Shown in pieces: positions 24,005 to 58,312 of a DNA stretch of 64,000 nt (position 1 is its first letter; each line of letters starts with the position of its first letter). The position numbers and the translations under genes are program-made. Source of the DNA: Naegleria gruberi (taxonomy: Eukaryota). The DNA lies in NCBI GenBank assembly GCA_000004985.1, contig GG738861.1; one strand, 5' to 3'. The notes under the pieces were generated by a model. The model was not told where the DNA came from. It saw only the letters and a program-made list of their open reading frames with translations, and made no database searches.

Positions 24005-25171
24005 TTAATGTTCACTAGCGGCAGAAAACAATGCAGCAACTGGTGTCGAAACTAATGATTCAGTTTTTGTTGTTGTTGAGCTTTTCACAATTTCATTTCT
24101 CTTTTCAATTTCATTGAGCGCCTTTTCAGAGTCCAAGAATAATGGATAGAAAAGAAATAAAACCAAAACTGAATAGATTAAAACACCTAGACAATTGAAG
24201 AAATGCCAAACTGCTTTGATTTCTTCAAAAGCTGTGACTCCTGCAGCTAAACTAACGGAAATTATTTCTAATAAAATACACAAAACTAAACCTATCATTA
24301 ATCCAATGGTAATTTTGAATGGTGATTGAACTCTCTTTTCAAATGTTTGAGTTTCTAATGAAATCCTTACAGAGCTATTACTGTGATTATTTTTCTGAAT
24401 GGATTGAGTAACATTTTGAGTTGTTTTCCTAATGTTTCGAATAACCAAAACTCCAGAGCTGATAACCATTGAAATAACAAAAGCAAACATGAAGAAAACA
24501 ATCACAGCAAAGACAGGAAAAATATATGTCATTGTACTTGTTGGCACAATTTCGAAATTCTTAATTCCATATAAAATAGAAGCTGCCAAAATTAATAAGG
24601 AAGAAACGAAAATGAATACCACATTAATGGAAATCATTAGCATTTCAATAACTTTGTGAGTTTTCTTTGAAACTGCTCGCATTAGTTGTGCTGTTTTCCA
24701 ACTTGAATTCGAAAGTTCAGTAAACTGAAAATTAAACTAAACTTACAACATACTCTGAATGAAAAATATAATTTCAAACAGCGAAATAAAGTTAATATAC
24801 ATAAAGAATGTTGAAACGCCACCCATCACTTGAATTGCAACGAAAAAATTCCATTCTACTAATTGACCACTTTCGGATAATATCCTGCCATGCATTTGCA
24901 TGGAATCAAGGACTAATCTGCACATCAGATTCAAACATTGTATCAGAACAAACAAAATTGTGAGTCCGAATAGTATTTTGTGGTTTCGAACAAGTTTAAT
25001 TTTCGTGCTTATTCGAAACAAGAATAAACCTAGACCTATTAAATAAACTAGAAATACAATGAGAAAGAATAAACAATTAGCAAGAGATATTGCATTCGAC
25101 CAAACTGGAAGAAATGCACCTGTAGTAACGTTAGCATATTCATTAATTTCAATTGGTTTCGAATAGAACAT
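24005..25171 (-). CDS. multi-pass membrane protein, paralog A (2 exons: about 25171..24746 and 24700..24005, 45-nt GTAAGT intron)
   Basis: ORFs 24743..25171 and 24005..24682 are collinear, 55-65% identical paralogs of 27578..28012 and 26837..27550. Exon 2 extends upstream of its listed Met (…F|WKTAQLMRAVSKKTH), matching the paralog's SWKTARLLRAISNKTH. The splice keeps both frames open. Confidence 0.6.
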
Positions 25172-25536: not shown

Positions 25537-26637
25537 TTAGTTTTGTAATAATTCAACAATTGCATCAGCCAAGTCGTTATAGTTTCGTTTAAATCTGAAA
25601 CCATGAGTTCCACATTTCCATTCCTTAATTTTCAACTTTCCATTCGAAACCTTGTTAATTAAAGTAGCAAATAATTCGCCTTCATCTCTTACTACATCAT
25701 ACTCGGCAAGCCAGACGAAACCTTTTGGAAATTTGGAATAGAATAAATTATCTGAAAGGTCAATAGCACTAAGTGGTGATAAAAATCTATTCGATTTCAC
25801 TTCTTCTTCCCTCAATTCACCAATTAACAAACTCCAAAACATGTCCATTATCATTCCATCAAGTAAAAGTCCACAATCTCTAAATTTCTTATACGAATCA
25901 TACTTTTCATTTCCATATTTGTAATATTCCAAAACTGGATATAGTAAACCTTGCTGAGTTATCTGTGGCACATTTTCTCTTTCCAATATTTCTTTATCAA
26001 CTGAAAATATTCTAATTTGAGTTGTAATTGCTAAATGAGCTCCTGAAGATTCTCCTGTTATGGTCAATTGTGAAATATTTCCATTATATTTCTGATAATT
26101 CTTTCCAATCCAAGAAAGTGCATTCAAATTATCATTTAAACATGATGGGAAAACGTGTTCTGGAGTTTTTCTGTAATTTACACTCACGACTAGGAATCCT
26201 TTTTTGGATAAAGTCAGGCAGAGTTGATTGGAAGAGTCAATTGAGCCAAGCATCCAACCACCTCCATGAATATACATCACAATGGGATAGCCATCATTTT
26301 TGAAAGGTTTAGGTTGGTAAATTCGAAGTGAATAGTGTGAAATTGGTTGACCATTTTCTTTCAAATATAGTTCAGAACTTGAAGTGTCAAATGTAATTGG
26401 AATTGTCTCAATTTTCAACGATTCCGTTTCTAGAGAAGGTGGCAATGGTTTGGAAAGAACCTTTTCTATTATTTTCATTCTAGGTCCAAGAATTTTTATC
26501 ATTGACTTGATTAGGAAACTTCCAACAATTATTGAAATTTTCACACCAGGAAATTTCACACTTTGCAAATAGATATGACCAATAAAGAATGCTACTATTA
26601 ACACGGCTACAATAAACAGTACGAGTAGTAATGCCAT
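25537..26637 (-). CDS. alpha/beta-hydrolase, arylacetamide deacetylase / hormone-sensitive-lipase-like esterase with N-terminal membrane anchor
   Basis: HGGGW oxyanion-hole motif (IVMYIHGGGWMLGS) and GXSXG nucleophile elbow (TGESSGAHLA). N-terminal hydrophobic anchor MALLLVLFIVAVLIVAFFIG. Confidence 0.8.
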   Translation of the reverse strand: MALLLVLFIVAVLIVAFFIGHIYLQSVKFPGVKISIIVGSFLIKSMIKILGPRMKIIEKVLSKPLPPSLETESLKIETIPITFDTSSSELYLKENGQPISHYSLRIYQPKPFKNDGYPIVMYIHGGGWMLGSIDSSNQLCLTLSKKGFLVVSVNYRKTPEHVFPSCLNDNLNALSWIGKNYQKYNGNISQLTITGESSGAHLAITTQIRIFSVDKEILERENVPQITQQGLLYPVLEYYKYGNEKYDSYKKFRDCGLLLDGMIMDMFWSLLIGELREEEVKSNRFLSPLSAIDLSDNLFYSKFPKGFVWLAEYDVVRDEGELFATLINKVSNGKLKIKEWKCGTHGFRFKRNYNDLADAIVELLQN

Positions 26638-26836: not shown

Positions 26837-28012
26837 TCACACATCTTCCTTACTCAATGAAATCTGTGAAGAATTTGCAGAATTTTCAATTTTCACAACA
26901 ATGCTCGAATTCATCAACTCATTTCTCTTCTCAATTTCCTTCAATGCATTTTCCGAATCCAAAAACATTGGATAGAAAAGCAACATTAACAGCACTGCAT
27001 AAATCAAAACTCCCAAACAATTGAAAAAGTGCCAAATTGCCTTGAAATCTTCGGATGAAGTTACGGTGGAGGCGAGAGCCAAAGAAATTATTTCCAATAG
27101 AATGCACAATAATAATCCTAAAAGTAAGCCGAAAGTTATTTTGAAGGGAGATTGGACTCGTTTTTCAAATGATTTGATTTCAAAGGAAGCTCTGTTGGTG
27201 GGAGCAGAGTTTTGAGTATCGGAAAGTGAAGTGTTTCGAATAGATTGAGTGACGTTTCGTGTTGTTTGTTTGATGGTTCGCATGACGAGAATTCCTGAAG
27301 TGATAATTAATGAACTGAGGAAGATTAGAATAATGAAAATTGCAATAAATGATGCAACGAAGGCATAGGTCAAGTAGTTATTCGAAATGATTTCGAATTT
27401 CTTAATTGCATACAATGCAGAAACTGCAACCACAACCAAAACTCCAATAATTACAACCACAACATTTGCTATTAGAATGATAATTTCAATAATTCTATGT
27501 GTCTTGTTTGAAATGGCTCTTAAAAGTCTTGCAGTTTTCCAACTAGACAAATTATTCGAAAGTGTTCAAAACTAAACTTACAATAATCTCTGAACAAAGA
27601 AAATAATTTCGAATAGTGAAATGAAATTAATATACATGGCAAATGTTGTAATACCTGCTGTCACTTGAATAGCAAGAAATAAACTCCATTCCACCAATTG
27701 ACCACTTTCGGATAATAATCTTGCATGTATTTGCAACGAATCATGAACTAATCTACAAATTAAATTCAATATCTGAATAATAACAAAGATTATTGTCAAC
27801 ACAAATAAAACCTTGTGATTTCTCACTAGTTTCACCTTTCTACTTATTCGAAACAAGAATATTCCAAGTGCAATCAAGTAGACAATGAAAATTATTAGAA
27901 AGAAAATACAATTCGAAAGTGAGAGAGCACAGGACCATACTGGAAGAAAGACAGATGTTGTTACGTTGGCGAAACCTCCACTTTCAATAACTTCTAAAGG
28001 TACAATTGACAT
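26837..28012 (-). CDS. multi-pass membrane protein, paralog B (2 exons: about 28012..27583 and about 27543..26837, 39-nt GTAAGT intron)
   Basis: Same architecture and conserved blocks as paralog A (FLPVWS, RISRKVKLVRNHK, LSESGQLVEW, FEKRVQSPFKIT, WHFFNCLGVLIY, FLDSE.AL.EIEKRNE). Confidence 0.6.
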
Positions 28013-28319
28013 GTTTTTTTGTGTGAATTAATTATGTTTCGTCCGGTTTCTTTTGGTGATCTAATCCTGTTTGGGAACATGTAAATGATGCAGTTAACAA
28101 TATTAATTGTCAATTTGACTTTCTATATTTGAAATAGAATCGGTCAAAAATGCTCAAACATTTCTAATAGTTTTATTCGAAAGATCTACTATGTCAATAA
28201 GGAAATGGATGAACATCATGTAAACGAACTCTTGAAAAGAACAACAATCAGTTGAAAAATTACTTGCATTCTATTGACAAAGTTTTTTACAAATCTAATG
28301 GAATTTTAAGATATCTAAG

Positions 28320-28560
28320 AGAGATTATTATTGGAATAAAAAGGAATTCACACTAGCTCAGAAAATGCTGTTGAACCACTTTACAGAAATAATCCCACTA
28401 ACATTGTGATTAACACACAACTACTTGTTAATTATAGATGCCTCTGTTTATTAAATGGAAATGCCAATGATTTTCTGTCAAATGTAGAGTTTTATTACTG
28501 TATGATTTCACATACTTTTCACAGGTGAAAACTCAGAACTATTCGGACATAACATTACCA
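28320..28560 (+). repeat. degenerate non-coding copy of an internal segment (about 29680..29930) of the downstream TPR gene
   Basis: gagattattattggaataaaaaggaattcacactagctcag, ..gatgcctctgtttattaaatggaaatg.. and ggtgaaaactcagaactattcgga align by eye with agagattattattggaatagaaaggaattcacactagctcag, ..gatgcttatgtttattgaatggaaat.. and ggtgaatattcagaactattcgga inside the TPR CDS. The copy carries frame-breaking changes. Confidence 0.6.
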
Positions 28561-28726
28561 TGATGTAAATTACAATATCCTTCTAGTATATGATAGAGAG
28601 TTTCCAATTTTTCTTTTGGATCACCAATTTTGTGCCATATAGAAAACCCAATGTATTTATGTAGCTAGGAAGATATTTGGAACTCTAAATTGATTGAGTT
28701 TTTTGGATAAAGTGATCACAAAAAAA

Positions 28727-30595
28727 ATGTCCATAAGAGCAGCAAGATTATCATGGTCAACTGTTGTTAGGGTTGGAAAATTGGCACTTTTCTCTAATAA
28801 CACCAACAAGAAAATATTTTCGCACCATCAATTCACAAAATTAAATACTTTTAATACCTTTACAAATATTAATATTAATAATACTAATAATGCTATTAGA
28901 CAATATCACAGCAAGAGTACACTCCATAACAATACTGCTATTGAAAATGTTACTTTGGAAGATTCAATAGAATCCAGTAAAAAAGATAGAATTCAACATT
29001 TGACAGATGTTCTTGATTTGAATCCAAATTTTGCTCCTGCTCTGTTAGAGAGAGGTTTATTATATCAAGAATTGCATGATTTTACAAATTCTTGTATTGA
29101 TTTGGAAAAAGCAATTGAGATTGATCCAAATATAGAAGGATTAGTAAATCTGCATACTCAACTAGGCTATATGTATTCGAAAGTTGAAAAATGCCATGAA
29201 AAGGCGATTTTACATTTAGAAAAAGCATTGGATTTATGTTTTGAAGCTAATATAATTCCTTCAAATATAATTTTCATGTTAACATATACACTCTATGACA
29301 ATAATGGTCACCACGAAAAATCAATTAAACTTTTAACGAGGGGAATTAAATTTCTATCAAGTTTGGAAGCAACTGAAGAATTATCAGAATTATATGTACT
29401 GAGAGGAAATACTCTAATTTCTGAATATAAAATGTTTGAACGTGGAAATCAAGATTATGAAACATCACTTCAATTAGGAGTCAAAACCAAATTGTATTGT
29501 TTAAGAATAATTTTGAATTCTTATGTAAATTTACAGTTATTTGATGATAAGATATTAATGTATTACAATATGGCAAGTGACATTATTAAACAATTTGAAG
29601 CTGAAAATGTGAAACAACTAGATTATCATGTTGCAGAAATGTATTACACTGAATATTCTAAAATTAATACTATAATGAGAGATTATTATTGGAATAGAAA
29701 GGAATTCACACTAGCTCAGCAATATGCTGGTGAGGCAATTTATAAAAATAATCCTGAAAATATTAGAATTGATCCAATGCAACATAATGATTATAGATGC
29801 TTATGTTTATTGAATGGAAATTTCAGAGATGTTCTAGAAAATGTAGAATATATTTATGGGAAGATTGCAAGTAACATTACAGTTGATTTAAGTTTCAAAG
29901 GTGAATATTCAGAACTATTCGGAAACAAAACAGAAACCTTAATTTCACAACGTATTTTCTTGGGTTTATTATATGAAGCTGATAGGCAAATCGACAACTC
30001 GATCTTATTTTGTGGACCAATCAAAGAATTGTTGAAAGATTACAAAATTGATGAAAATTTCACATGTATTCCAAAAGAAAAATTGGAAACTCTCTATCAT
30101 GTGCTTGAAGGATATTGTAATTTACATCAGGGCGATCATTCTCTTTTGAATGAAAACATTTCTCTTGTTGTAAAATATTTTCCATTTTATTTATTTACAA
30201 TTGGTACAAGATACAAAATTAGAAATGAAATGGATAGGTCAAGAGAGTATTATTTACAATATTTCGATAAAAGTGGAGATTTGGAAGGATTATCTGAAGC
30301 AACTGACTGTCTAATTTCACTAAATAGATATGAGGAGGCAGTGGAAGAATCTGATAAATTATTAGAAAGAGATCCATTATACATTCATGCTCTGTACAAC
30401 AAGGGTGAATCATTATTTCACTTGGGGAAATTAGAAAGTGCCAGAAAGTGTTTTGATTTGGCAATTACTGAAGCTGAGAAACAGAACCACAAACATCTTG
30501 AATTGATGGTTCATTCATTGAAGCAAATGTGGCCTCAATATTTAATATTGTCAATTCCTATTACTTTGAAAAAAACCAATAAAAAATTAATTTAA
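28727..30595 (+). CDS. TPR-repeat protein
   Basis: The listed ORF starts at TTG 28694; first ATG is at 28727 (MSIRAARLSWSTVVRVG, resembling an organellar presequence). TPR-like helical repeats: ALLERGLLYQELHDFTNSCIDLEKAIEIDPN and YEEAVEESDKLLERDPLYIHALYNKGESLFHLGKLESARKCFDLAI. Confidence 0.6.
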   Translation: MSIRAARLSWSTVVRVGKLALFSNNTNKKIFSHHQFTKLNTFNTFTNININNTNNAIRQYHSKSTLHNNTAIENVTLEDSIESSKKDRIQHLTDVLDLNPNFAPALLERGLLYQELHDFTNSCIDLEKAIEIDPNIEGLVNLHTQLGYMYSKVEKCHEKAILHLEKALDLCFEANIIPSNIIFMLTYTLYDNNGHHEKSIKLLTRGIKFLSSLEATEELSELYVLRGNTLISEYKMFERGNQDYETSLQLGVKTKLYCLRIILNSYVNLQLFDDKILMYYNMASDIIKQFEAENVKQLDYHVAEMYYTEYSKINTIMRDYYWNRKEFTLAQQYAGEAIYKNNPENIRIDPMQHNDYRCLCLLNGNFRDVLENVEYIYGKIASNITVDLSFKGEYSELFGNKTETLISQRIFLGLLYEADRQIDNSILFCGPIKELLKDYKIDENFTCIPKEKLETLYHVLEGYCNLHQGDHSLLNENISLVVKYFPFYLFTIGTRYKIRNEMDRSREYYLQYFDKSGDLEGLSEATDCLISLNRYEEAVEESDKLLERDPLYIHALYNKGESLFHLGKLESARKCFDLAITEAEKQNHKHLELMVHSLKQMWPQYLILSIPITLKKTNKKLI

Positions 30596-30937
30596 CAGTA
30601 TTTGAAATAGTTTTTTATGTAAATGTAATGGAATTTCAGCAATTCAATTTTACAAGTGTTTATGATAATCAATTATTCAACAGATTTGACAATAAACTGA
30701 TTTCTCTCCTTTTCAAGTTATCACGTCCTGTAAATATTCAAAATTCATTGTAAACTAGCCTATTTCCTAAAAAGTAAGATATCAATCATTTCTAAATTGT
30801 TCACTGATCGTCATCCAAACGTTTTTTCATAATCTCAAAAGGTTTCTCAAGTAACGAAGAGTTTTCAAAAATAAAAAAAAACCAACATCCAACCTCACGT
30901 CAACAACTGCCAACTAATTGTACAGACCTAGATCAAT

Positions 30938-31459
30938 ATGGGAATCACACAAAACAAACTGTTAACCGTTGTAAAATCCATCTCTCTAGAACATTTAGAA
31001 TCTGGACTAAATGCTGAAGAAGCAGAATCACTTTGGAAGGAAGCAGATCTCAACCATGATGGAATTTTATCCGAAAGTGAAGCAAAATCACTTTTAAAAA
31101 ACCTAAACCTCACAATTATGGAAAGATTAAGAAAGGCAATGTCTGATCTCGATCAATATCTTCAATCTGATGAATTATTAAAAGAATGGATGAAAGAATG
31201 TGATGAAAATCAAGACGGAAAAATTACAAAAGATGAATTTCTTAAAATGGTAATGAGTGGACATGCAGTTGATACAATTCCAAAGATTTTACTTGATTCA
31301 ATTCATGGCATTGAGGAACAATCAGAAAAGAAGAGAAAGAGACAAGTTGAAGATCAAGCTAAGGAAGATTCGGATAAAGAGGAAGAAGAGGAAGAAAAGG
31401 AAGAAGAAGAAACTTTTGAATCTGAACTGAAAAAGGTTAAATTCACAACACTTGTTTAA
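30938..31459 (+). CDS. EF-hand calcium-binding protein with acidic C-terminal tail
   Basis: Two canonical EF loops (DLNHDGILSESE and DENQDGKITKDE). Starts MG..., possibly myristoylated. Glu-rich tail. Confidence 0.7.
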   Translation: MGITQNKLLTVVKSISLEHLESGLNAEEAESLWKEADLNHDGILSESEAKSLLKNLNLTIMERLRKAMSDLDQYLQSDELLKEWMKECDENQDGKITKDEFLKMVMSGHAVDTIPKILLDSIHGIEEQSEKKRKRQVEDQAKEDSDKEEEEEEKEEEETFESELKKVKFTTLV

Positions 31460-55065: not shown

Positions 55066-56751
55066 TTATTTTACTTTTTTGTTTTTTTTCAAATCAGAAA
55101 CAATTGATTTGATATGTTCTTTCAAATCAAATTCCAATGTTTGGAAACTCTTGATTCCTGTATCATAACTAATCTCAGCAACATATGATGAAAGTGGAAA
55201 CTTCCTAATATAGTCTCTTAATAAGAAAGCAAGTGGATTGGCTGGAATACTTTCAACGTTATGAACGAATAGAAACAATGTAGGTTGTGGAACTGGTAAT
55301 TTCCTTTCAAATTCTTTCCAATCAACAAACGAAATGTCTTCCTCCAATCTTCTAATTCCAACATTTTTCATTACAATATTCATGTCATACTTTTCTCCCA
55401 TATTGCTAGTAAATTGAACATTTGGAATAATATCTCCTAAAAATTCCAATAACTCTTCTTGATTGTCATGATTGTGTCCTTGTCCGAAAATGGAAATTTT
55501 GGCATTGATTACAAAATCAAGTTTTGAATCTCTTTGAGGTTTGGCATCTGCTAAGATATTTCCCTGCTGAGAATTAGTACCAGATTGGCTACATTGGCAT
55601 TTTCTTATCAATGGAGCAACAGGTTTTTCCACATATCTAATGGTGCTTTCTGAAGGAATCACTCTGAATAACACAATTGCTATTAAGGCAACAAGAATAC
55701 AAAAGAACCACATTATTCTATTGGTAAATTTGGAAAAATTATCCTTGGATTCTTGTAATTGTTTCCTGATTTCTGCAATGGCTTTGAGATTTTCATCAAT
55801 GTTATTGAACTTTTCTTTTGAGTTCTCAACAAGAGTCTTAACACTTTCTATTTCGGTTGATAAAGATTCTGAACTATTATTCAATGCTTGTTGTGATTCT
55901 AATGCTTTAGTCTCGATATCATTAGAAATCTTTAGAATCTGTTTCTCCAAGTTCAATGCTGAATTCTCAATCTTGTCAGAAATTTCTCTTTTAACCTCAT
56001 TTGCAATCAATTCTTGATTATCTTTAAATTCTTTCGATTGTCTAACCAACTTGTCTTGTAATTGATCTTCTAACTTGGAAACATGCTGTAAAATAACATC
56101 TTCAGAAGCTTGAATCTTTCCCGTAAACTTGTTTGATAGAGAGCTCTCTATATTTTCAATTTCCTTCTTCAAATTATTTTCTACATCTTTCACATTTGTA
56201 GAAATTTGAATTTGTTCTTGTTCAATTTTCTGTTTCAACCCATCAAATGCCACACTGACATGCTCCATGACAGCATGTTCTGATTTTTCCATCTTTTCAT
56301 CAACTCTTCTCTCCAGTTTTTCCTTTTCATGTTGCAGTTCATCAAATGATGGATATTGATCTTCCAATTGGTCAACTTGGTCTTTAAGAGATTCAATCTG
56401 TTCTGAGCGAGCAATGCACAGTTCAACTTTCGAATTCAGTTTTTGATAATTTTCCTCCAACAAGGTTGAAGAAGGAGATTGGTTAGTTTCCTCTTCAACG
56501 TTGTTAGATGAACTTGATTCAACTGGTTTAGTTTCGGTTTCTTCTTCAGAATACTCTACTCTTTCGAATGAATCTTCTTTGATTGGTGAGTCTGCAGATT
56601 GTGAATCTTGATTGGAATTAGCTTGCACCATTTTTTTTATAGTTTCTAAACGTGATTTACCCACTTGCATAATGACATGTTGTTTTGGCAGATGACAAAT
56701 TGATTGATCATCACGTTTGAGTTCATGTAAAATTGGAGCTTGATTAAACAT
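55066..56751 (-). CDS. coiled-coil membrane protein
   Basis: The listed start GTG is at 56763; first ATG is at about 56751 (MFNQAPILHEL). About 250 aa of heptad-rich coiled coil, one TM (IMWFFCILVALIAIVLF), then a C-terminal globular domain. Confidence 0.5.
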   Translation of the reverse strand: MFNQAPILHELKRDDQSICHLPKQHVIMQVGKSRLETIKKMVQANSNQDSQSADSPIKEDSFERVEYSEEETETKPVESSSSNNVEEETNQSPSSTLLEENYQKLNSKVELCIARSEQIESLKDQVDQLEDQYPSFDELQHEKEKLERRVDEKMEKSEHAVMEHVSVAFDGLKQKIEQEQIQISTNVKDVENNLKKEIENIESSLSNKFTGKIQASEDVILQHVSKLEDQLQDKLVRQSKEFKDNQELIANEVKREISDKIENSALNLEKQILKISNDIETKALESQQALNNSSESLSTEIESVKTLVENSKEKFNNIDENLKAIAEIRKQLQESKDNFSKFTNRIMWFFCILVALIAIVLFRVIPSESTIRYVEKPVAPLIRKCQCSQSGTNSQQGNILADAKPQRDSKLDFVINAKISIFGQGHNHDNQEELLEFLGDIIPNVQFTSNMGEKYDMNIVMKNVGIRRLEEDISFVDWKEFERKLPVPQPTLFLFVHNVESIPANPLAFLLRDYIRKFPLSSYVAEISYDTGIKSFQTLEFDLKEHIKSIVSDLKKNKKVK

Positions 56752-56776
56752 CACGTTTACCACACACTTTAAAAAA

Positions 56777-58312
56777 ATGGAACCTAAACATCTTGGACAT
56801 ATTGCCTTCTTGTTTATTTTCAGTGGTTTGCTTGTATGGCTTGTATTTTATTCGAAACTATTAGCCAGAGTGCCAGACGACCTTTCCTGTTTGAAAATAC
56901 ACGACTATCACATCAAGAGAGAAAAGTACTTATTGTCATCTCCATTAAAAGTTGGATTTAAACTTCATTCATCAGGTTGCATCACAGAATATACGCACAG
57001 CAATTGTCTTGTCATTCTTTCACAAACTAAACATTCGAATGGAACTAGTTCAGATTATTATTTGAAATCTCAACAAGGAATTACAATTACAAAGAAATCA
57101 ATTCAAAATAATGAATTCCAAATAGAAATTACTCCAGTTCATCATGACCATTCAAATGTCGATAAATTACCAAAACAATTGAACTTGGATTTGACATGTA
57201 ATTCCAAAAATATTGAAAGTGTAACTATTCCTCTATCCACACAAATATTTTCCGAGCAAGTATTCAAAGCATATAGAAAGAATAATCCAGAACTCAATCA
57301 TGTTAACATTCTAATTGCTGGAAATGTTGGATCTGGTAAAAGTACTCTTGTCAACTCGTTCTATACTTGTGTGACAGATCGTGTCAAGTTTACAGTTCCT
57401 GCTCTAGTCAATAACAATCACACCACAATTGAACTAAACAAATTGAGATTGAATGTGATGGATTATTCAACAGATAGTTCAATTACTTCGAATATTACCA
57501 TTCTGGACACTGTCGGCATTACAAAATATAATTACAATTCGAAAGAGGCAATTGAATTGATTTTATCAGGTGAAAATCCGAATATTTACCTTGAAGGAAA
57601 TATTAAGAGATCAGAAATTGATATCAAGCTTCTTGAGGAAAGACTGCGAGAGTTGGCAATTGTATTCGAATTGAAAACTATGAGTACTGAAGAGGAATAT
57701 TTGTTAAATCTCTTTTTTGCACACAATACGCCAGAACATCAACAAAAGTTACAGAACTATGTCAAGAATAATGATTGGAATTCGTATATTGAAAAGAGAA
57801 AGAAAGAAATTAAATTTAAAAAGGATAATTTGGATAAGTTGGCTGATTTGGAGCTTGAATATAATACCAAAGATGCAATTGTTAAACAAAATAAGGTTTT
57901 ACTAAATACAGAAAAGGAAAAATTTGAAAAAGGACTTGCCAACAAGAAGATGGACAATAAGATTAACAATAAGGTTCATGCTATTGTCCTGCTCGTTTCT
58001 CAACCATCAATAGATTCAGATCATTTACTTCAGGATAGTATTAAGAATTTCATTAAGGAAATTTCCATTCATGGAATTTATCCCATTATTGGTGTGACTC
58101 ATCTCTCAACCAATAATGAAAGTATAGTTATTGAAACTGTTAAGAAATCTTTAGGATTTGATGCCAACAATATATTCCTTGTACCATTCAATACCAATAA
58201 GGAGAAGAATTTTGAAGTTGACAAGAAAATACTATCTCTCTTACTTGAAGCAATCACAAGAGGCAACGATTTTAAAGAACAACGAAGAAGTCAAGTTAAA
58301 GATGAATTGTAA
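56777..58312 (+). CDS. membrane-anchored TRAFAC-class P-loop GTPase (AIG1/IIGP-like) with C-terminal coiled coil
   Basis: N-terminal TM (IAFLFIFSGLLVWLVFY). G1 GNVGSGKSTLVNSF. G3 ILDTVGI. Conserved blocks follow (HAIVLLVSQ, PIIGVTHLS). Lys/Glu-rich coiled coil between G3 and the C-terminus. Confidence 0.55.
   Translation: MEPKHLGHIAFLFIFSGLLVWLVFYSKLLARVPDDLSCLKIHDYHIKREKYLLSSPLKVGFKLHSSGCITEYTHSNCLVILSQTKHSNGTSSDYYLKSQQGITITKKSIQNNEFQIEITPVHHDHSNVDKLPKQLNLDLTCNSKNIESVTIPLSTQIFSEQVFKAYRKNNPELNHVNILIAGNVGSGKSTLVNSFYTCVTDRVKFTVPALVNNNHTTIELNKLRLNVMDYSTDSSITSNITILDTVGITKYNYNSKEAIELILSGENPNIYLEGNIKRSEIDIKLLEERLRELAIVFELKTMSTEEEYLLNLFFAHNTPEHQQKLQNYVKNNDWNSYIEKRKKEIKFKKDNLDKLADLELEYNTKDAIVKQNKVLLNTEKEKFEKGLANKKMDNKINNKVHAIVLLVSQPSIDSDHLLQDSIKNFIKEISIHGIYPIIGVTHLSTNNESIVIETVKKSLGFDANNIFLVPFNTNKEKNFEVDKKILSLLLEAITRGNDFKEQRRSQVKDEL

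Follow-up and report, generated by a model that had tools for sequence, protein, structure and literature searches.

A rearranged mosaic of TPR gene fragments in the intergenic region directly upstream of that gene in Naegleria gruberi

Duplicated (unprocessed) pseudogene fragments are homologous to a functional parent, carry frameshifts or stop codons, lack a start codon, accumulate neutral substitutions, and lie near the parent. Short segments taken from within 1-2 kb and joined in direct and inverted orientation, with the intervals skipped, are characteristic of FoSTeS/MMBIR template switching, for which junction microhomology is diagnostic, and of the templated “filler DNA” inserted at double-strand breaks. 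Gene-derived inverted sequences are also found at endogenous siRNA loci, including the mouse oocyte pseudogenes that yield endo-siRNAs, the Drosophila hpRNAs, and the pseudogene siRNAs of Trypanosoma brucei, where they can form perfect or near-perfect double-stranded RNA with the parent mRNA. As for Naegleria, candidate Dicer, Argonaute, MOV10, and C3PO homologues of putative function are reported for N. fowleri, and RNAi has so far not been demonstrated in the genus (PMC13315211). The N. gruberi locus described here, a short mosaic lying immediately upstream of a TPR gene, resembles each of these systems in some respects and departs from each in others.

The window, i.e., the whole 64-kb stretch of DNA that was analysed, is AT-rich (33.5% G+C) and gene-dense and has a eukaryotic content (EF-hand, alpha/beta-hydrolase, and TPR proteins). 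The mosaic occupies roughly 28255-28634 (about 320-380 bp, non-coding) and is composed of the pieces A, B, and C, whose parental segments A', B', and C' all lie within 2.4 kb of the insert. The locus is organized as follows:

26837-28012, minus strand: two-exon membrane-protein gene, the upstream divergent neighbour
28013-28726, no strand assigned: divergent intergenic region of 714 bp between the membrane-protein gene and the TPR gene, holding the mosaic
28255-28306, plus strand: piece A, probably derived in degenerate form from the end of the TPR gene (about 30582-30636: final codons, stop codon, and 3' flank)
28319-28547, plus strand: piece B, a decayed direct copy of CDS 29677-29923 (codons about 317-399)
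28548-28557, no strand assigned: B/C junction, ~10 nt assignable to neither piece
28558-28634, minus strand: piece C, an inverted copy of CDS 30042-30132 (codons about 439-469), delimited by gapped alignment and by tblastn on the minus strand
28635-28726, plus strand: unique sequence between the mosaic and the ATG, with an in-frame TGA (28691-28693) and an A-run before the ATG; presumed core promoter and 5' UTR of the TPR gene
28727-30595, plus strand: the parent gene, coding for a 622-aa TPR protein that is 100% identical to N. gruberi XP_002678566.1 / NAEGRDRAFT_66270, titled “predicted protein”
29677-29923, plus strand: parental segment B', delimited by blastn
30042-30132, plus strand: parental segment C', the partner of the inverted arm
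30582-30636, plus strand: parental segment A', running from the CDS end through the stop codon into the first part of the 3' flank
30593-30595, plus strand: stop codon of NAEGRDRAFT_66270

The NAEGRDRAFT_66270 ORF is uninterrupted, and its start (ATG 28727) is fixed by the in-frame TGA and by the A-run listed above; Pfam places TPR motifs only near residues 96-170 and 527-584 of the product. No mention of this gene was found in the literature, and the literature on Naegleria transcription start sites and UTR lengths yielded nothing useful. The A-run directly before the ATG (AAAAAAAATG) is common to both divergent genes (28005-28019 and 28720-28734), and the two start contexts form a 15-nt inverted repeat across the intergenic region; AAAAAAAATG may be a general start-site context in N. 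gruberi.

An earlier note on this DNA had observed that about 240 bp at 28320-28560 resemble 29680-29930 within the TPR CDS, and alignment bears this out. Specifically, blastn aligns piece B with B' on the same strand with 177 of 247 columns identical (72%, 18 gap columns, E 1e-34), i.e., 77% of the 229 ungapped columns, which is far above the level of less than 60% over less than 100 bp that had been named as the mark of mere background similarity. Smith-Waterman comparison of the intergenic region (28013-28726) with the TPR gene gives a score of 147 in direct and 106 in inverted orientation, against a mean of 27.4 and at most 36 for 200 dinucleotide-shuffled sequences. The peptides picked out in the earlier note (RDYYWN.KEFTLAQ, YRCLCLLNGN, and GE.SELFG) are recovered by tblastn and by three-frame translation, and the reading frame is broken, as had been stated, by the loss of 1 nt near 28362 and a net loss of 17 nt around 28508-28520, with stops in all three frames. 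The position relative to the gene has to be corrected: the fragment was placed 1.1 kb upstream of the gene, whereas piece B ends 180 nt before the ATG and sits ~1.36 kb upstream of the segment that it copies.

Piece C, which begins ten bases after piece B and had been overlooked, is the better preserved of the two. Its core (28558-28620) is the reverse complement of 30070-30132 with 59 of 63 positions identical (94%, E 9e-24 by blastn), and beyond the core a 15-nt deletion is followed by 14 more matching nucleotides up to 28634 / 30042. The piece lies 93-169 nt upstream of the TPR ATG, and with C' it constitutes the sole inverted repeat of such kind in the 64-kb window, its arms being 1.4 kb apart and bracketing the promoter and the 5' two-thirds of the CDS. 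Piece A, likewise overlooked, is marginal: its identity to A' is 76% over 55 columns (E 2e-5 by blastn), and its Smith-Waterman score of 38 barely exceeds the maximum of 37 reached in 300 shuffles, although it is higher than all 100 real-sequence controls drawn from elsewhere in the window (maximum 32, mean 24.7, sd 3.0); judged by these scores, it is probably a true copy of the 3' end of the TPR gene. The shuffled and the real-sequence controls together rule out chance similarity of AT-rich DNA.

The origin of the pieces was addressed by searching for other possible donors. Self-comparison and tblastn disclosed no further copy of the fragment in the 64-kb window, and the remainder of the intergenic region yielded no additional TPR-like sequence, either as DNA or as protein. 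Relatives of the protein were sought by an exhaustive HMMER search of 1.84 billion representative proteins with its non-TPR middle (residues 180-520) as the query, and the matches were the protein itself (E 1e-224), one generic weak match, and the N. gruberi paralogue NAEGRDRAFT_73356 (582 aa, 29% identity, on another scaffold). A word-indexed protein search with 29264-30286 missed even the identical entry, and its negatives need caution. No orthologue of the TPR gene outside N. gruberi was found by the protein searches, including the exhaustive HMMER search of representative proteins, nor was any related metagenome locus, and the gene thus appears lineage-restricted. Since the sole detectable relative is the 29%-identical paralogue on another scaffold, the parent is the adjacent TPR gene or a near-identical copy that has since been lost. 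The encoded peptides point the same way: the fragment encodes RDYYWNKKEFTLAQ, where the neighbouring TPR gene has RDYYWNRKEFTLAQ and NAEGRDRAFT_73356 has KQYFLKRKDYKKAIE. An origin from another family member or from a dispersed repeat is ruled out within the window and the protein search, and the paralogue mismatches the fragment's peptides.

Much of what is seen in the mosaic agrees with the features of duplicated pseudogene fragments. It shows significant similarity to a functional parent that lies nearby, it contains stops in all three frames on both strands and no start codon, and it covers, of the CDS interior, only codons about 317-399 and 439-469. Moreover, its substitutions look unconstrained, at least in piece B, piece C having only 4 differences. 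The mismatches of piece B are spread evenly over parental codon positions 1-3 (18/74, 17/77, and 17/77) and hence bear no trace of a period of coding constraint, and its composition (G 0.154, C 0.162) has moved away from that of the purine-rich parental coding strand (G 0.195, C 0.098) to that of the surrounding intergenic DNA (G 0.153, C 0.139), a combination that marks neutral decay. The mosaic differs from this class in that it is not collinear with the gene, being made of three short shuffled pieces, one of them inverted, and in that divergence differs about four-fold between pieces. The pieces do not look retroposed, as they are internal, one is inverted, and no poly(A) tract was found beside or behind any of them, while intron loss is no guide to retroposition here, given the uninterrupted ORF of the parent. 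Around 28255-28634, neither terminal inverted repeats nor direct repeats were found at the flanks, and capture by a transposon of the Pack-MULE or Helitron type is ruled out by the lack of flanking terminal repeats and of any other copy in the window; likewise, no Rfam match at E<=1 was obtained in 27400-31000, which rules out a known structured RNA.

The unevenness of the divergence deserves separate treatment. Piece C has 4 mismatches in 63 positions and piece B 52 in 229 (6% vs 23%, Fisher p=0.003), corresponding to Jukes-Cantor distances of about 0.07 and 0.27, respectively. Within piece B the mismatches are clustered (permutation p=0.014 on bin variance): the first 46 nt carry only 2 and are 96% identical to the parent, against 50/183, plus indels, in the rest of the piece (p=0.0003, for a split chosen post hoc). 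This pattern is not predicted by a single event followed by uniform neutral drift, and calls for an extra assumption, i.e., two events, gene conversion, or selection on conserved patches. As to piece C, three of its four differences affect third positions of parental codons, and the remaining one is a conservative V/I change in translation. With n=4 this distribution has no statistical significance, but it fits changes that accrued in the parent under constraint, and selection on the copy need not be invoked. In an RNA duplex with the mRNA, two of the four mismatches could still form G-U pairs, which is weak evidence for maintained pairing because transitions are common anyway. A younger age or gene conversion would explain the low divergence of piece C equally well; gene conversion, which the earlier note had named as a possible origin of the fragment, would be one of two ways to account for the uneven divergence.

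Taken together, these observations make it probable that the mosaic is a non-functional, rearranged pseudogene fragment of the adjacent TPR gene, left by local template switching or patch repair. The homology, the arrangement, the disablement, the neutral substitution pattern, and the uneven divergence are directly observed; how the insert formed, that it has no function, and why its divergence is uneven are inferred. The proposed course would begin with a local replication or repair accident near the TPR gene, which would have served as the template either for serial template switching of the nascent strand (FoSTeS/MMBIR-like) or for templated “filler” synthesis at a repaired break. The insert would have been dead on arrival, having no start codon and a scrambled order, and most of piece B would then have drifted neutrally, while piece C and the first 46 nt of piece B may be later additions or may have been restored to the parental sequence by short-tract gene conversion. 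The order A (3' end, direct)-B (direct)-C (inverted), with its mixed orientation and lack of collinearity, is better suited to template switching or patch repair than to simple tandem or segmental duplication, and this qualifies the earlier suggestion that the fragment can be a “relic of segmental duplication”: its derivation from the adjacent gene, its disablement, and its neutral substitutions all stand, but a mosaic of direct and inverted pieces is not a collinear duplicate. Like the products of FoSTeS/MMBIR and of filler synthesis, the mosaic joins short direct and inverted segments from within 1-2 kb and skips the intervals between them. Unlike them, it offers no recoverable microhomology, since none could be assigned from the alignments at 28307-28318, 28548-28557, or 28634/28635, where the decay of piece B obscures the original junctions; moreover, its uneven divergence suggests that it is not the untouched product of a single event. 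It is unlikely that the mosaic is instead what remains of a once complete tandem or inverted TPR paralogue, trimmed by deletions and a local inversion. The neighbourhood does have a history of local gene duplication (26837-28012 vs 24005-25171), B' and C' fall within one 456-nt stretch (29677-30132), and B and C would result if that stretch had been duplicated once and the copy had then undergone an inversion and lost ~118 nt; against this, the order A-B-C demands at least three extra rearrangements or three ancestral copies, the mismatches of piece B show no third-position excess that would betray past coding constraint, and the rest of the intergenic region is devoid of detectable TPR-like DNA or protein sequence. 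The need for several further rearrangements and the missing coding-constraint phase in piece B render a decayed full-length tandem paralogue the less parsimonious explanation.

Other readings assign a function to the inverted arm. The earlier note had suggested that the fragment could be a source of antisense or small RNAs against the parent gene; the stretch that it had in mind, piece B, is a poorer candidate than arm C because it is direct, shares only 72% identity, and would have to be transcribed in the direction leading away from the gene, while arm C could pair with the TPR mRNA if it were transcribed in the gene's direction. Under such a scheme, transcription toward the TPR gene would start upstream of 28553 (from an upstream start site or with a long 5' UTR), the leader 28558-28634 would pair with 30042-30132 within one RNA molecule, the 63-77-bp duplex so formed would prevent translation or be cut into siRNAs that down-regulate this very gene, and selection would maintain the identity of arm C. 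The geometry is favourable, given that the arms are 94% complementary over 63 nt and extend to 77 pairs with a duplex energy of -103 kcal/mol, that the helix is part of the minimum-energy fold of a hypothetical 28540-30200 transcript (forbidding the 77 long-range pairs costs 70 kcal/mol), and that arm C, which lies close to the ATG and belongs to the sole such inverted repeat in 64 kb, is significantly less diverged than piece B with half of its mismatches G-U compatible. Like pseudogene and hairpin siRNA loci, it is a gene-derived inverted repeat able to form long, near-perfect double-stranded RNA with the parent mRNA, but with 63-77 nt it is shorter than the arms typical of described hpRNA loci, it would pair in cis with the parent's own CDS, and it is known from sequence alone. 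The host side is consistent with such a role to the extent that candidate Dicer and Argonaute homologues are encoded in Naegleria genomes, although RNAi has yet to be demonstrated in the genus (PMC13315211); transcription of arm C is hypothetical. Furthermore, pieces A and B, the latter clearly decaying, would play no part, and the low divergence of arm C, including its third-position differences, is accounted for equally well by the age, gene conversion, and parental constraint considered above. A cis-encoded hairpin or endogenous RNAi trigger is therefore improbable, and the stricter proposal, in which arm C is kept near-identical as part of a transcribed leader and its 77-bp intramolecular duplex makes the gene self-limiting by translational block or Dicer cleavage, is more doubtful again. 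Lastly, the arms C and C' could recombine and flip 28635-30041, i.e., the promoter and the first 438 codons, so that the gene would alternate between full-length and truncated forms. The 94%-identical inverted arms do lie on either side of this stretch, and after the flip the frame would run through arm C and stop about 6 codons on (minus-strand frame 1, ending in ...PKEKLETLYHILEGYCNLHHGNVMSE and a stop), but this is an argument from geometry only, neither a gene nor a site for a recombinase is evident, and the assembly contains a single orientation. To our knowledge, no such inversion switch is known in Naegleria, and we regard this possibility as very remote.

The divergent neighbour (26837-28012, minus strand) and the gene at 24005-25171 (minus strand) are paralogous two-exon genes for multi-pass membrane proteins that lack a Pfam match. 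They share 68% identity over 1077 nt and 53% at the amino acid level, enclose an alpha/beta-hydrolase gene (25537-26637), and evidently represent an old local duplication beside the mosaic. The mosaic is unlikely to stem from that same event, as the divergence between the paralogues is much greater and the surroundings of the other copy contain no TPR-like sequence. The ORF gaps in the two genes are about 27 nt (27551-27577) and about 60 nt (24683-24742) only, and the intron boundaries must fall inside the listed ORFs. Elsewhere in the window, two divergent long ORFs (55066-56763, minus strand, and 56777-58312, plus strand) are only 13 nt apart, and a shared promoter would hardly fit into this gap at 56763-56777, unless the real start codons are located further inside the ORFs.

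As a relic of the TPR gene, the mosaic matters little beyond being another case, of a known type, of gene-derived debris in protist intergenic regions; it exemplifies small templated insertions and complex local rearrangements and cautions annotators against calling ORFs in such places. It has modest value as a molecular fossil, through which the events at the locus may be placed in relative age and which possibly offers evidence of short-tract gene conversion in Naegleria. If the self-limiting hairpin were true, the locus would represent a cis-acting, gene-derived hairpin autoregulator in a heterolobosean, a lineage in which RNAi is so far not demonstrated, and if arm C is transcribed, it would provide a natural hairpin substrate for testing whether RNAi works in Naegleria.
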